Shown: positions 1,209 to 40,963 of the stretch, in pieces | Layout of the letters: each line of letters opens with the position of its first letter | Numbering within the stretch: position 1 is the stretch's first letter | From: an uncultured Bacteroidales bacterium | GTDB taxonomy: Bacteria > Bacteroidota > Bacteroidia > Bacteroidales > WCHB1-69 | Length of the DNA: 56,569 nt | Direction: 5' to 3' | NCBI GenBank assembly: GCA_937892025.1 | Contig: CALAVA010000029.1 | Coordinates: 1-56,569 of the forward strand | Translations under genes and position numbers: made by a program | The notes under the pieces: model-generated | The model's input: only the letters and a program-made list of their open reading frames with translations | What the model was told of the DNA's origin: nothing | Database searches by the model: none

Positions 1209-1367
1209 CTGACATACTCCCACGAATGAATTCGTGGGGTTCTTAATCAATTTCAAGAACACGTATTAACCACACTTGATACATCAAGTGGCGCTGTCAG
1301 CAACGCAATGTTAAAGCAATTCATCCCACAGCTAAAGCAGTGGGCTTTCTTGCACGTTAATCGTAAG
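1209..1367 (+). repeat. Structured intergenic repeat, copy A (full length, lacks hairpin 3)
   Basis: CTGACATACTCC followed by hairpins CCCACGAA-TGAA-TTCGTGGG, GTTCTT..AAGAAC and CACTTGA-TACA-TCAAGTG, then TGTCAG and terminal TTAATCGTAAG. About 90% identical to 30647-30823 and 33171-33350. Confidence 0.9.
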
Positions 1368-1462
1368 GCATCATCACATACAGACAGATGAACATTGGAC
1401 AAGAAATTTGAAAAAAGCGGAGTTAATTCAATTTAAATAAAAAACTATTTTTTAAATTTATT

Positions 1463-1852
1463 ATGACCAAAGAAGAAATAAAACTATACTATAAGATTAA
1501 TGAAAAGTTCATTAAAGATTGTGAATGTGTAGCATCGTATATGCAAAGATATGATAATGATTATGATTACATTACTGATTGGGAAATTTCCGAATACGAT
1601 GGTGAACTTGAAGTTAGAGGAAATTGTTATGTCTATTCACATGGCTACTATGTTTGCGAATCTTCTGTGTGTTTTGAAGCAGAATTGATAGCATATACAG
1701 ATGAACAATTAAAAGACCATGTAGAAGGATTAATAGAAGAGCGTGAAAAATATATTGAAGAACAAAAACGTAAGACTGAAGAAGAAAAAAGAAATAAAGA
1801 ATTAGCAACGCATAAAAGATTGAAAGAAAAATATGGCGATATTAGTCTATAA
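1463..1852 (+). CDS. Hypothetical protein (K/E-rich C-terminus)
   Basis: 129-aa ORF in the + strand gene train. Antisense ORFs in the track are shorter and low-complexity. Confidence 0.65.
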   Translation: MTKEEIKLYYKINEKFIKDCECVASYMQRYDNDYDYITDWEISEYDGELEVRGNCYVYSHGYYVCESSVCFEAELIAYTDEQLKDHVEGLIEEREKYIEEQKRKTEEEKRNKELATHKRLKEKYGDISL

Positions 1853-2237
1853 TAAAAGTAACGAAGACCATTCAATGCATCCGAATAATTTTTATATTGG
1901 ACGAGGAAGTATTTTGGGTAATCCTTACACACATTTGCCATTAAAGAGAACAATAGCATTATATAAGGCAAAGAGCAGGGAAGAGGCAATAGAACTATAT
2001 AGCGGGTATTTTGACTTAATGTATTCGTGTAACAAAGATTTCAAGGCAGTTGTTGATGAAATATACGAAAAATACAAAAGAGGAGAGGATGTATATCTTG
2101 AGTGTTTTTGTCATCCATTGAGTTGTCATGGTGACATAATTGTTCAAAAACTACAAAAAAGGCTTTTAAAAGAAAAAATAATGGAAGAAAAAATGAAACG
2201 TGATGTTAAAAATATGGAAATGGGACAAATATTATAA
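1833..2237 (+). CDS. DUF4326-like protein
   Basis: 'FYIGRGSILGNPYTH' and 'ECFCHPLSCHGDII' match the two signature blocks I associate with DUF4326. Confidence 0.65.
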   Translation: MAILVYNKSNEDHSMHPNNFYIGRGSILGNPYTHLPLKRTIALYKAKSREEAIELYSGYFDLMYSCNKDFKAVVDEIYEKYKRGEDVYLECFCHPLSCHGDIIVQKLQKRLLKEKIMEEKMKRDVKNMEMGQIL

Positions 2238-3093
2238 TCTTCCTGAGATACAAGAAATTAGAGATAAAATTATAGATACATATACAAACAAGTTGGTGTT
2301 TGTGGAAGGGCCGCATAAGTATTATCTTGATGGTGTTGAATATATTTCCGTGTCGGAGGTAACGCATAAATACAAACCAATAGATGGCGAGCAAATGGCG
2401 GAAAACTGTGTCAATAAATGGATGAAAGACCAAGACCCATCATATAAGTATTATGGGATGTCCAAGGAAGAAATATTGGCACAATGGAAAGTAAAAAGTG
2501 ACCATGCATGCGAATTTGGAACCAATGTTCATGCATTCGGTGAAAGTATGTTCTATTATATGACAGGAGAGCCTGACAAAATACTTGATGAATGTAAAGA
2601 ACAATTTGATGAAGATGGTCCACACCCAGCAAATCCACAAGAAAAAGCAATAGTTAAATTTTGGGATGATTTACCAGAAAGTTTTGTTCCGGTTCTTGCT
2701 GAAACAAAGGTATTTAATAGAAACGGAACACAATATGCAGGAACATTTGATATTCTGTTTTATTATGTTGAAGAACCAGAATCTCCAAAAAATGGGCTTT
2801 TGATTTTTGACTATAAGACAAATGAAGATTTGTACAAAAACTATAGGGGGCAAACTTTGTTATGGCCGTTCCAAGATATGTTAGACCAAAATGCTTCTTA
2901 TTATCAATTACAATTGTCATGTTATCAGATTCCATTGGAAAATTTAGGATATAAGGTAATAGGAAGAAGACTTATTTGGGTAAGACCCGATGGGAGTTAT
3001 GAAAAAATCAGGTTGGATTCTGTATCAGGACGATTGCGTGAAGCCCTTAATATACCAACTTCAAAAGAAATAATAGAAAAAGGAATCCTGTAG
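2200..3093 (+). CDS. PD-(D/E)XK family nuclease (RecB/Cas4/YqaJ-like exonuclease)
   Basis: 'GTFDILFYY', 'IFDYKTN' and 'YQLQLSCYQ' give a D..(D/E)xK..QxxxY motif order. Confidence 0.65.
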   Translation: MMLKIWKWDKYYNLPEIQEIRDKIIDTYTNKLVFVEGPHKYYLDGVEYISVSEVTHKYKPIDGEQMAENCVNKWMKDQDPSYKYYGMSKEEILAQWKVKSDHACEFGTNVHAFGESMFYYMTGEPDKILDECKEQFDEDGPHPANPQEKAIVKFWDDLPESFVPVLAETKVFNRNGTQYAGTFDILFYYVEEPESPKNGLLIFDYKTNEDLYKNYRGQTLLWPFQDMLDQNASYYQLQLSCYQIPLENLGYKVIGRRLIWVRPDGSYEKIRLDSVSGRLREALNIPTSKEIIEKGIL

Positions 3094-3115
3094 TTGTTAT
3101 TACAGGATTTTTTTT
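3084..3115 (+). terminator. Rho-independent terminator
   Basis: AATCCTGTA-loop-TACAGGATT followed by T8; the TAG stop of the nuclease gene lies in the stem. Confidence 0.75.
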
Positions 3116-3131
3116 GTATAATAATGAAAAA

Positions 3132-3160
3132 TTGGTACAATATTTGATAGCATAATTTTG
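3132..3160 (+). promoter_or_regulatory. -24/-12-like motif plus TAATTTTG box
   Basis: TTGGTAC-AATAT-TTGAT, then TAATTTTG (fits the Bacteroides -7 TAnnTTTG), about 25 nt upstream of ATG 3183. Confidence 0.5.
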
Positions 3161-3182
3161 AAAACATTTAGAATTTAAAAGT

Positions 3183-3437
3183 ATGGCAGAAAAACTTATG
3201 ACATTCAAGCACACCAAAGACGGTATGCTGACAGTTGAAAATCAAAAAGGAGATTTCATCTTGAAAAACGAATTTCTTGGCGTATTGCACGAGATTATTT
3301 CAGAAAAGGAAAGAGTACTTGCAAACTATTCAAGTGAAGATGACACAAGAAAAGAGGAAGTATGGTTTAGAATAACAAAAGCCGAATATGATGCTCAATT
3401 GGATTTACTTGAGAAACTGAAAAAAATGGTTTATTAA
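3183..3437 (+). CDS. Hypothetical protein
   Basis: 84-aa ORF directly downstream of the promoter-like motif, tightly followed by the next gene. Confidence 0.6.
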   Translation: MAEKLMTFKHTKDGMLTVENQKGDFILKNEFLGVLHEIISEKERVLANYSSEDDTRKEEVWFRITKAEYDAQLDLLEKLKKMVY

Positions 3438-3440
3438 AAA

Positions 3441-39494: not shown

Positions 39495-39788
39495 ATGGGA
39501 ATTTACAAAAAATGGAAAGAGCGCAATGCGTTCAATGCTGAAAATTGCAGAAGAAAACAACAAAAAGTTTTGAATGAAAATTACAACAAGAAAATAGAAG
39601 ATATTCGTGCAAGAATTGACTATGTTGTTGGTAATTCAACAGAAGAACACGCCGTTATCTATTGTGTAAATCCTTTAGACAGAGATATGTACGTGAAAAT
39701 TAGTGATTTTTTCTACAGCCTTGGGTTTATTGCTGTGATTACACCAATTCAAGGGCTTCAAGATGAATATCTTATAATTAGTTGGTAA
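39495..39788 (+). CDS. Hypothetical protein
   Basis: 97-aa ORF. Confidence 0.6.
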   Translation: MGIYKKWKERNAFNAENCRRKQQKVLNENYNKKIEDIRARIDYVVGNSTEEHAVIYCVNPLDRDMYVKISDFFYSLGFIAVITPIQGLQDEYLIISW

Positions 39789-39792
39789 TGTT

Positions 39793-40164
39793 ATGGTAAT
39801 ATTTTTATTTCTTTATTTTATTAATCTTGTTTTGGATTTTCCATTACAGTCTGATTTTATGTCAAAGTATAAATCACAAAGCGACTATGTTCTATTTGTG
39901 CATTGTGCAATTTGGGGACTTGGCCTTTGGTTTGCACTTATGCCTTTGGGATTGTTTGCTTGGTGGAAACTTGTAATGCTTGTTGGTGGCCATTTTATTA
40001 TTGACAGGTGGAAATGTCACAAACATTATAAATTATGGCCAATGAAAAAGACTCCGTTGCCATTTGGCGATGGGTACAAAAAAGAGCCTGTAATTTCTGA
40101 TTTTGGTTCTCTTTATATTGACCAGACATTACATGCAGTACAAGTTTTATTGTGCCTTATTTAA
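39793..40164 (+). CDS. Membrane protein (DUF3307-like?)
   Basis: Three or four hydrophobic segments; 'LDFPLQSDF' and 'HFIIDRWK' resemble DUF3307 from memory. Confidence 0.55.
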   Translation: MVIFLFLYFINLVLDFPLQSDFMSKYKSQSDYVLFVHCAIWGLGLWFALMPLGLFAWWKLVMLVGGHFIIDRWKCHKHYKLWPMKKTPLPFGDGYKKEPVISDFGSLYIDQTLHAVQVLLCLI

Positions 40165-40188
40165 TTAAAGTTAAAATAATGGAAAATA

Positions 40189-40488
40189 ATGAACAATATA
40201 GATAAATTAAAAGCATTACAATACGACATTAAAGAATATGCAAAGTATCTTGAATGCAATACATATAATCCATATGAAAGGGTTCAAGAGTTTGCAATAC
40301 GATTGAGGTCCATTATCAATGATTTAGATAATAATTGTTTAAACATTGGTACTGAAGAAGAACCTGTTCAGATAACTAAAGACGAATATTTTGATGAATG
40401 GTTTGCTTGTGGAGCTCCTGAAGAAAAAACTTATCGTATGTGTTTCGATGAAGGTATCCATTATGCAGAATTGAAACAAAAAAGATAA
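40189..40488 (+). CDS. Hypothetical protein
   Basis: 99-aa ORF. Confidence 0.6.
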   Translation: MNNIDKLKALQYDIKEYAKYLECNTYNPYERVQEFAIRLRSIINDLDNNCLNIGTEEEPVQITKDEYFDEWFACGAPEEKTYRMCFDEGIHYAELKQKR

Positions 40489-40561
40489 AACAGCGTCTTA
40501 GTCTTAAATGTAAAATACGGCTAAAGATATATGACTATATCAGAAGAGTCGGTTATTATTG

Positions 40562-40593
40562 TAATAATAATAATAATAATAATAATAATAATA
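40562..40593 (+). repeat. (TAA)10 microsatellite
   Basis: Ten perfect TAA units in a non-coding gap. Confidence 0.95.
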
Positions 40594-40647
40594 TAGGCGA
40601 TGAGTATGCCTATTGGTGGTAAAGAATTTTAACAGCGATATTTTACA

Positions 40648-40785
40648 ATGAGTAGAGAAAAAAATTGTATGGATTGTTTCCATCAGTACCATTGTCTAAT
40701 GGTACAAGAGGATTGTAATTTTAACCCTGACACTTGCCCTTATAATCCAGATAAAAACAATGTTAGACAAGAATGGGAGTGCTAG
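40648..40785 (+). CDS. Small Cys-rich protein (45 aa)
   Basis: 'NCMDCFHQYHCLMVQEDCNFNPDTCPYNP'. Ends in TAG. Confidence 0.35.
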   Translation: MSREKNCMDCFHQYHCLMVQEDCNFNPDTCPYNPDKNNVRQEWEC

Positions 40786-40949
40786 ATTTAATCGAATATC
40801 TGAAAAAGATAAATGATTTAAAAGAAGGCGTATCTTCTTATGCCTATGAAGAAGATTATAAATTAAGGAGCGGAGACACAAAAAAAATTGGTCATCATTG
40901 CACTGACATACTCCCACGAATGAATTCGTGGGGTTCTTTTTTTTATTAA
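40773..40949 (+). CDS. Small ORF (58 aa) whose C-terminus is encoded by repeat copy H
   Basis: 'MGVLDLIEYLKKINDLKEG...HHC|TDILPRMNSWGSFFY*'. The last 15 codons lie in the repeat. Confidence 0.3.
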   Translation: MGVLDLIEYLKKINDLKEGVSSYAYEEDYKLRSGDTKKIGHHCTDILPRMNSWGSFFY

Positions 40950-40963
40950 GAACACATATTTGT
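40903..40963 (+). repeat. Structured repeat, copy H (hairpins 1-2)
   Basis: CTGACATACTCCCACGAA-TGAA-TTCGTGGGG, GTTCTT-TTTTTTATT-AAGAAC, ACATATTTGT. Confidence 0.85.

Follow-up and report, generated by a model that had tools for sequence, protein, structure and literature searches.

Nine places in a 56,569-nucleotide (nt) stretch of DNA from an uncultured Bacteroidales assembly (contig CALAVA010000029.1; the whole stretch is called the window in what follows) share a short module and a series of hairpins, and the question raised by them is whether they constitute a new family of structured RNA or belong to something already known. The answer proposed here, with a probability of about 0.93, is that they are gene-less mini-copies and broken ends of an IS608-like transposon of the IS200/IS605 family, with the scaffold of a TnpB omega-RNA on the strand opposite to that on which an earlier note had read them. 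They are, in other words, of a known kind, namely palindrome-associated transposable elements (PATEs) and their remnants with a TnpB omega-RNA scaffold, in a new host genome, and do not form a new class of RNA. The window itself has phage-like features (31% GC; six Rfam tRNA matches, five of them called by ARAGORN), among them genes for two RNA ligases and for a protein that falls in a PHROG family named 'RNA-binding protein'; the host genome is that of an AT-rich, apparently large, uncultivated phage. In GenBank phages, neither a full copy nor 20 kb of the window found a match, and the window has no close GenBank relative; related loci from IMG/VR and from other genomes are given labels such as L001 and L020 here. 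Close relatives of the phage among them are L031 (90% identical in a 549-residue protein), L030 (93% identical) and L047 (94% identical in a flanking protein); the 438-residue protein neighbouring copy C, used as a query, returned none.

That the nine places belong together is well above chance. The sequence CTGACATACTCC, with up to two mismatches, is matched 12 times in the window against 2.0 expected, a number reached in none of 100 shuffles, and a profile built from the three full copies (A, B and C, the elements at 1209, 30647 and 33171), whether searched with nhmmer or, filters off, as a covariance model, finds exactly those nine places that the earlier note lists and none besides; a match at 36062 on the minus strand lies inside a gene and is due to chance. 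The hairpins described at 1209, 18525, 20754, 22648, 30647, 32493, 33171, 37689 and 40903 are likewise present, as is the 21-nt deletion in copy A. Two points of that description need correction. The final GTAA(G/A) of what was called the terminal TTAATCGTAAG is the target motif, also found at the empty site, and does not belong to the element, so that the limits of the full copies become 1209-1362, 30647-30819 and 33171-33345. The single orientation ascribed to all copies holds except for 37689-37763, which consists of two inverted fragments of the transposon right end (RE), and for 20754-20793, which is a palindrome of two such ends: the top strand of the transposon is the minus strand at eight of the nine places, the ninth being the palindrome at 20754, and 37727-37763 adds one fragment whose top strand is plus. 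The features are as follows (LE, left end; TAM, target-adjacent motif; a slash within sequence marks an element boundary).

1209-1362, minus strand: mini-element A, PATE-like, 154 nt (covariance model, 112 bits on the minus strand); RE tail AGTATGTCAG (reverse complement of 1209-1218), RE hairpin 1219-1238, omega-RNA scaffold 1209-1310 without one 21-nt stem, LE hairpin 1325-1344, 18-nt LE leader 1345-1362.
1363-1366, minus strand: target/TAM TTAC (GTAA on the plus strand) adjoining the LE of copy A; L047 reads ..AAATGG/GTAAGACC.. at the homologous place.
18525-18601, minus strand: RE-only remnant, 77 nt, with tail, RE hairpin and two omega-RNA stems (break in homology to L031).
20754-20793, no strand: 40-nt palindrome of two RE tails around one common hairpin, an RE-RE inverted fusion (profile matches on both strands; absent from L031).
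22648-22682, minus strand: RE-only remnant, 35 nt, with tail and RE hairpin (homology to L030 and L032 stops at 22647).
30647-30819, minus strand: mini-element B, 173 nt (covariance model, 128 bits on the minus strand); GTAA at 30820-30823.
32493-32516, minus strand: LE-only remnant, half an LE hairpin and the 18-nt leader; GTAA at 32517-32520.
33171-33345, minus strand: mini-element C, 175 nt, the most complete copy, with its scaffold at 33171-33293 (covariance model, 142 bits on the minus strand); GTAA at 33346-33349.
37689-37763, no single strand: inverted composite of two diverged RE fragments (sequence; weak profile matches on both strands), 37689-37726 with its top strand minus and 37727-37763, reading AAGAACCCCACTACTTTAGTGGCTGGAGTAGTCAG, with its top strand plus.
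40903-40982, minus strand: RE-only remnant, about 60-80 nt (profile and covariance model); TTCTTTTTTTT follows the hairpin on the plus strand and is terminator-like.

The identity of the module is revealed by its surroundings in other genomes. A scan of IMG/VR with the 17-mer CTGACATACTCCCACGA returned 27 loci, each of which was oriented on the module before its open reading frames (ORFs) were inspected; all 27 continue into the same hairpin, and about half have an ORF of 335-408 codons on the reverse strand that ends within or just beside the module. The three such ORFs scanned against Pfam (L020, L005 and L026) are all TnpB (OrfB_IS605, Cas12f1-like_TNB and HTH_OrfB_IS605), the L020 protein aligning end to end with ISDra2 TnpB (8bf8; E=4e-8), and a 130-residue Y1 transposase (E=5e-28 to IS608 TnpA, 2a6m) lies just upstream of TnpB in L007, L008, L022 and L023. 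Since the module stands beside the 3' ends of TnpB ORFs, with a Y1 TnpA in several loci, it is the reverse complement of an IS200/IS605 RE; in the related full-length element, of about 1.4 kb, it overlaps the 3' end of tnpB, and it is in this region that the family encodes the TnpB omega-RNA, or reRNA (PMC8612924, PMC10097598). Intact tnpB genes are also found in relatives of this very phage (L001/L029 and L047). In L047 (contig IMGVR_UViG_3300028888_000260), an autonomous element of the same family with both tnpA (Y1_Tnp, E=4e-42) and tnpB occupies 6527-8020, in the opposite orientation, with LE hairpin CCCACTTCTTTAGATGTGGG, left guide AAAA and inferred target TTAT; the window, at about 4510-4520, is the empty site for this element and reads ..GGAAAGTAT/GACC...

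Homology of the full copies to full-length elements is split. In BLAST comparisons, about 124 nt match positions 0-123 of the L020/L001 element (RE and the last tnpB codons), while the remaining 55 nt or so match positions 1339-1401 of L020, some 1.34 kb further on, past the start of tnpB and at the LE. The full copies are therefore internally deleted, gene-less LE-RE fusions, which keep about 124 nt of the RE side, with the complete omega-RNA scaffold, joined to about 50 nt of LE. At 154-175 nt they are too short for a transposase and consist of a fused LE and RE, as PATEs do, and relatives with the same ends encode Y1 TnpA and/or TnpB (the Pfam matches given above). Their minus strand still encodes the last 25 or so residues of TnpB, 84-88% identical to residues 383-408 of the L020 protein in copies B and C and 87% identical over 15 residues in copy A (tblastn), so that the statement that no reading frame is conserved is not entirely accurate. 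As A, B and C are dispersed, about 90% identical and share one deletion junction, they have a single origin, followed by spread to three sites and divergence to that level of identity. The one junction in three dispersed copies, together with presence and absence between relatives, is an indirect sign that they may have been moved by strand-specific excision and integration by TnpA via a single-stranded circle.

The features singled out by the earlier note can accordingly be renamed: its 5' module is the RE tail, its first hairpin the right imperfect palindrome or tetraloop hairpin, its hairpins 2-4 the omega-RNA stems, its CTGACA/TGTCAG closure the putative pseudoknot, and its 3' domain the LE hairpin with leader and TTAC. 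Two of the possibilities left open there, a strand-specific non-autonomous mobile element and a protein-recognised RNA or DNA site, prove essentially right. That the family was not recognised as a known RNA is borne out by Rfam, although the class is already in the literature as PATEs, omega-RNA/reRNA and the RE-like UUCA tetraloop.

Comparison with related phages, in which elements are absent at homologous sites in L031 and L030 and L047 provides the empty site for A, fixes the element boundaries. At 18525, homology to L031 (95% identical) stops at 18524 and resumes at 18602, L031 reading ..CTATAATAA/GTAAG..; at 22648, homology to L030 stops at 22647, L030 reading ..GTATAATA/GTAAAG..; and at copy A, homology to L047 begins exactly at 1363, the G of GTAA. 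From these three breaks, TTAC on the minus strand is placed directly 5' of the LE and, at empty sites, directly 5' of the RE-flanking sequence. On the plus strand, GTAA follows each of the window's four LEs, and no target duplication is seen. In the window and in seven related elements, AAAG directly precedes the LE hairpin on the minus strand, 18-19 nt separating TTAC from the hairpin foot (18 nt in the window copies), and beyond the RE hairpin lies a tail of 10 nt with TCAG at its end. Within the LE hairpin, CCCACnnCTTTAGnnGTGGG, a comparison of 11 sequences shows that the mismatch at pair 6:15 is conserved and that pair 7:14 covaries. The two ends, TTAC/GATTAAC... and ...GTATGTCAG, are not inverted repeats of each other, and both contain subterminal imperfect palindromes.

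This geometry is that of IS608 from Helicobacter pylori (IS605 group), in which TTAC lies 19 nt 5' of the left imperfect palindrome, TCAA lies 10 nt 3' of the right one, and the left and right guides are AAAG and GAAT (PMC3201880, PMC5934647). The left cleavage sequence and target, the AAAG directly 5' of the LE hairpin, the two distances, the imperfect subterminal palindromes without terminal inverted repeats, and the Y1 TnpA and TnpB of autonomous relatives are all shared with it. Unlike IS608, the right cleavage and guide sequences are TCAG and GAAC, the hairpin sequences are unrelated to those of IS608, and most copies in this phage lineage are tnpB-only or gene-less, those of the window being gene-less. 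Pairing as deduced from sequence joins the left guide AAAG with cleavage site TTAC and the right guide GAAC with TCAG; with respect to GAAT/TCAA, the latter pair represents a double change, T to C and A to G, at the fourth positions, which pair with each other, and a second double change obeying the same rule is provided by L047 (AAAA with inferred TTAT, against AAAG/TTAC here). Pairing between guide and cleavage site in this family thus obeys the rule known from IS608, and two natural variants show compensatory change.

As regards PATEs, these arise from IS605-type transposons by core deletion and include terminal-only forms of about 52 bp (Dyall-Smith et al. 2011, PMC3119063; haloarchaea); they often encode omega-RNAs, and PATE-like elements are found in G. 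stearothermophilus (Meers et al. 2023, PMC10055086). The elements of the window resemble them as gene-less LE-RE fusions formed by core deletion, without target duplication and with terminal-only forms of about 50 bp in the wider family. Unlike the PATEs of haloarchaea they are found in an AT-rich, apparently large uncultivated phage, and their deletion junction lies upstream of the scaffold and not at the hairpin repeat, as a consequence of which the whole omega-RNA is kept. Neither a search for the RE sequence in the supplements of the Haloquadratum PATE paper nor a full-text literature search with a 12-mer found it, the latter returning unrelated primer sequences only.

Which strand is under selection was addressed with a hand-curated alignment of 13 distinct minus-strand sequences of the clade (mean identity 90%), on which a model of five hairpins and a 4-bp pseudoknot, between loop CUGA of the 5' hairpin and the terminal UCAG, was imposed. 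In this model, 98% of cells pair (96-99% for individual stems) and six pairs are changed on both sides; none of 500 shuffles reaches the covariation score, and slid controls pair at 29-46%. RNAalifold independently predicts the same five hairpins. G·U pairs that exist only on the minus strand account for 16 cells, those that exist only on the plus strand for 2, which puts the selected fold on the strand of tnpB and not on the one initially read. The compensatory stem changes originally claimed are thus real, as shown by the six double-changed pairs and by a survey of 79 distinct RE hairpin instances from all domains, in which the loop-closing pair, where an A:T/T:A swap had been noted, is C:G in 28, A:T in 27, T:A in 24 and mismatched in none. 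The minus-strand loop of this 8-bp hairpin is UUCA in 47 and UUUA in 21 of the 79 instances, and an 8-bp stem with a UUCA 'RE-like tetraloop' has been described for the sotRNAs of archaeal IS1341-type elements and for a PATE RNA (Gomes-Filho 2015, PMC4615843).

In all 13 sequences the CUGA loop (about -113 to -110) could pair with the UCAG at the 3' end (-4 to -1), both being invariant; in other clades, GTCAG is found in the loop of a freely covarying stem (GGCGGT/ACCGCC, GCCGT/ACGGC, GGCCT/AGGCC, GGGGG/CCCCC). The position of CUGA and UCAG corresponds to that of the pseudoknot in the omega-RNA of ISDra2, where -103 to -105 pair with -5 to -3 of a 116-nt scaffold (Karvelis 2021, PMC8612924; Nakagawa 2023, PMC10097598), and, as in ISDra2, the tnpB strand carries a multi-stem scaffold, about 120 nt long, which overlaps both the RE and the end of tnpB and whose final 4 nt are complementary to a loop some 110 nt upstream. 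Unlike in ISDra2, the predicted TAM is TTAC and not TTGAT, and the scaffolds have no sequence similarity. It can thus be proposed that the full copies of the window carry a TnpB omega-RNA scaffold, for which transcription, TnpB binding and a guide of about 16 nt are predicted.

At the gathering threshold, Rfam finds only tRNAs in the window and in 12 related loci, archaeal ones included. Permissive scans (E<=10) of copy C and of an archaeal copy give noise only, with no match to HgcC, the Rfam family linked in the literature to the RE tetraloop.

Taken together, a full element is organized as follows on the minus strand. The TTAC target is followed by GATTAACGTGCAAGAAAG, the 18-nt LE leader ending in guide AAAG, and by the imperfect LE hairpin; tnpB, sometimes with tnpA before it, comes next in autonomous relatives, then the four-stem omega-RNA scaffold, the right guide GAAC, the RE hairpin CCCACGAU-UUCA-AUCGUGGG and the 10-nt tail at which the element ends. 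A Y1 TnpA supplied in trans would excise the top (minus) strand as a circle and insert the circle 3' of a TTAC in single-stranded DNA, a mechanism that would lead to a common orientation and to the absence of terminal inverted repeats; the co-orientation seen here fits strand-specific single-strand integration (PMC5027513). If transcribed, the scaffold and about 16 nt of flank would guide a TnpB also supplied in trans. The short copies are dead remnants, produced by RE-RE inverted fusion or by deletions that began within the element and extended into adjacent phage DNA.

Several observations have to be set against this account. No tnpA or tnpB is found in the 56.6-kb window by tblastn, just the TnpB tails of about 25 codons on the minus strand, so that mobilization in trans is something we infer, and the exact deletion junction of the mini-elements has no match in IMG/VR. 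Empty sites are defined for three copies, with one clean side in each and the other deleted or replaced. The partners of the pseudoknot never vary, and covariation consequently says nothing about them, while the close relatedness of the 13 aligned sequences causes the shuffle statistics to overstate independence. Finally, the GC skew of the plus strand is positive, and a lagging-strand rule would predict the opposite orientation of the elements if the skew reflected the direction of replication. Phage GC skew mainly follows transcription. As it tracks the coding strand, the direction of replication cannot be read from it.

An alternative that is compatible with a transposon origin is that the full copies have been retained as orphan guide-RNA genes, whose TnpB would come from elsewhere in the phage, from a co-infecting relative or from the host, and which would confer a homing or exclusion advantage by directing cleavage of TTAC-flanked empty sites. 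The deletion does keep a complete scaffold (about 124 nt, where ISDra2 needs 116 nt), all stem cells of copy A are paired, intact tnpB genes exist in the relatives L001/L029 and L047, and PATE omega-RNAs acting in trans have already been proposed (PMC10055086). Against this, stem cells are unpaired on the minus strand in copies B (four) and C (two), copy B having several mismatches in its stems and in its RE tail (GGAATATGTCAG); the window has no tnpB; and no target consisting of TTAC and the guide of A, B or C is present in the related loci examined or in IMG/VR, where a scan with the 18-nt flanks of B and C gave chance matches only, in unrelated contigs. Retention for this purpose is considered unlikely.

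That remnants have been co-opted on the plus strand as intrinsic terminators or RNA-stabilizing hairpins between phage genes is suggested by the copy at 40903, in which a 9-bp stem is followed by TTCTTTTTTT, by the same T-run in copy B and by the position of several copies directly after stop codons. The T-run, though, is found in only two of the nine copies and replaces a loop that varies freely in relatives, and terminator-like sites in the region are at chance (3 found, 3.8 expected); a terminator scan flags two copies, 40903, where the T-run is full, and copy C, where a sub-stem of 6 pairs is picked out at 33183-33198. Such a role is considered very unlikely.

The main idea of the earlier note, a new structured RNA, can be taken to mean a plus-strand RNA, or a 5' leader, transcribed from TATAAT boxes upstream of the copies. 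The boxes are indeed there, 1-5 nt upstream of four of eight copies against a background of 0.75% (P about 2e-7), and the hairpins can form on the plus strand too. The boxes are, however, also present at the empty sites in L030 and L031 and, at 18525, lie within codons (..DYN..) of the upstream gene; being there before the insertion, TATAAT is target context and not part of the element. As the sequence, once reverse-complemented, is that of the tnpB 3' end with the RE, the G·U count favours the minus strand by 16 to 2, and archaea and bacteria carry the module without such promoters, this idea is given up as highly improbable. The adjacency to TATAAT may instead reflect a preference for melted or AT-rich promoter DNA, or the survival of intergenic insertions.

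Still poorer is the fit of REP/BIME-type repeats moved by a RAYT transposase: these are short palindromic intergenic repeats too, and RAYTs are related to IS200 TnpA, but in full-length relatives an LE and a distinct RE enclose tnpB, whether or not tnpA is present, the mini-elements join LE to RE and are not REP doublets, and the TTAC target and 18/10-nt geometry are those of IS608, so that this origin is almost certainly wrong. A nut/put-like antitermination leader, a CRISPR-repeat mimic, a self-cleaving ribozyme, an IS110 bridge RNA and a group I intron remnant were rejected, as none fits the linkage to TnpB and the homology split between LE and RE.

With the elements taken as IS200/IS605 mini-copies and remnants, their effects on neighbouring genes can be described; each definable site has one exact element boundary, the other side being deleted or replaced. 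At 18525, the window lacks about 1.17 kb that in L031 (2115-3329) encodes a 404-residue DUF7487 protein, of which the last 40 codons or so survive at 18602-18717, and the LE side of the remnant was lost along with this phage DNA. At 22648, an adjacent 0.96 kb or so is missing, which in L030 (3180-4148) encodes a 322-residue protein with DUF723/DUF4379 and the N-terminal domain of a PvuRts1I-like endonuclease. Copy A lies within the stump of an RNA-ligase gene, whose last 22 codons are left at 1363-1428 (tblastn; Pfam RNA_ligase), and the ORF at 32781-33191 receives its last seven codons and stop from copy C. The free-standing endonuclease-like genes of L031 and L030 sit exactly where the window has RE remnants, and there seems to be competition between two kinds of mobile element for these intergenic slots.

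RE-RE inverted fusions, either as a perfect 40-nt palindrome or as two facing RE fragments, recur in unrelated genomes: the form seen at 20754-20793 is found in L119 and, in part, in L108. Template switching at the RE hairpin may give rise to them, or inverted copies may recombine with each other. A near-identical copy of the remnant at 40903 is present in metagenome contig L178.

More than 100 stretches of archaeal and bacterial genomes contain the 17-mer with its hairpin (some ten additional matches are due to chance), the carriers including methanogens, haloarchaea, DPANN and Asgard among archaea, and Anaerolineae, Bacteroidota, Saccharibacteria, Chlamydiales and Campylobacterota-like genomes among bacteria. 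Common in these genomes are terminal-only forms of about 50 nt, in which the RE hairpin is directly followed by CTTTCT...ATCGTAA and which correspond to the 52-bp PATEs of Haloquadratum. In the Methanobacteriota metagenome-assembled genome SZUA-158 (L050, L055, L056, L063, L064, L078, L080, L081 and others), more than 20 copies have the RE hairpin split after the loop, CTGACATACTCCCACGACTAAAG/AGGCTGTCC..., the interruption being one of two other repeat families; these resemble the SMR-A-type elements for which insertion into the PATE palindromes of Haloquadratum has been reported.

What had appeared as a novel nine-copy family of structured RNA is, on the reading preferred here, ordinary IS200/IS605 debris read on the wrong strand, and a false lead is thereby removed. 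The annotation of the phage is mended with respect to exact element limits, the TTAC target, an RNA ligase truncated by insertion and the loss of neighbouring genes. The 35-nt right end emerges as almost invariant across methanogens, Asgard archaea, candidate phyla radiation bacteria and large phages, and the TnpBs of the clade, with their predicted TTAC TAM and omega-RNA scaffold of about 120 nt, are candidate compact tools for genome editing. Small leads on competition between mobile elements in phage genomes are offered by the promoter-adjacent insertions and by remnants that replace homing-endonuclease-like genes. It is even conceivable, if quite unlikely, that the element is more than a passive parasite, its gene-less scaffolds guiding the TnpB of a co-resident or co-infecting relative to cut TTAC-flanked empty sites in competitors and, separately, its transposase targeting melted promoter DNA and not only replication forks. 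The latter could be the meaning of the four insertions that lie 1-5 nt past TATAAT boxes, given that such boxes are already there at empty sites; if the former were true, scaffold-guided TnpB would act as an RNA-guided homing drive between phages, carrying along adjacent deletions of rival homing-endonuclease genes.

Other features of the window deserve mention. What looks like an RNA-repair/tRNA module (20929-29213 and 52627-54211) comprises the phrog_850 gene ('RNA-binding protein') and the RNA ligases phrog_548 and phrog_968, to which the third RNA-ligase stump at 1363-1428, a cluster of four or five tRNA genes and tRNA-Gln at 8495 are to be added. The motif TGGCAYRNTTTTTG, often followed by GTATAWT, occurs 13 times against 1 expected:

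26495, 26754, 33428, 38034, 41148 and 44290, plus strand: motif TGGCAYRNTTTTTG (sequence).
50459, 52076, 52159, 53364, 55414 and 56520, minus strand: motif TGGCAYRNTTTTTG (sequence).

It is on the plus strand up to about 44 kb and on the minus strand beyond 50 kb, the sole exception being a one-mismatch match at 9453 (minus), and is also found upstream of genes in L001, L013, L030 and L032; in L001 it directly adjoins the transposon RE. It resembles a sigma-54-type -24/-12 element and is probably the promoter type of this phage.

A 24-nt palindromic motif of operator-like appearance, AAATATGTACGCAAATGCGTATAT, has three copies in the minus-strand tRNA region (50495-50518, 53385-53408 and 54335-54358), and an (ATA)n microsatellite of about 38 nt (40557-40594) is intergenic, upstream of the remnant at 40903. 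A 102-nt direct repeat (87% identity; 55362-55463 and 56468-56569) marks the right edge of the window, and a 47-nt repeat (94% identity; 46203-46249 and 46955-47001) in two neighbouring ORFs suggests that these are paralogous genes.

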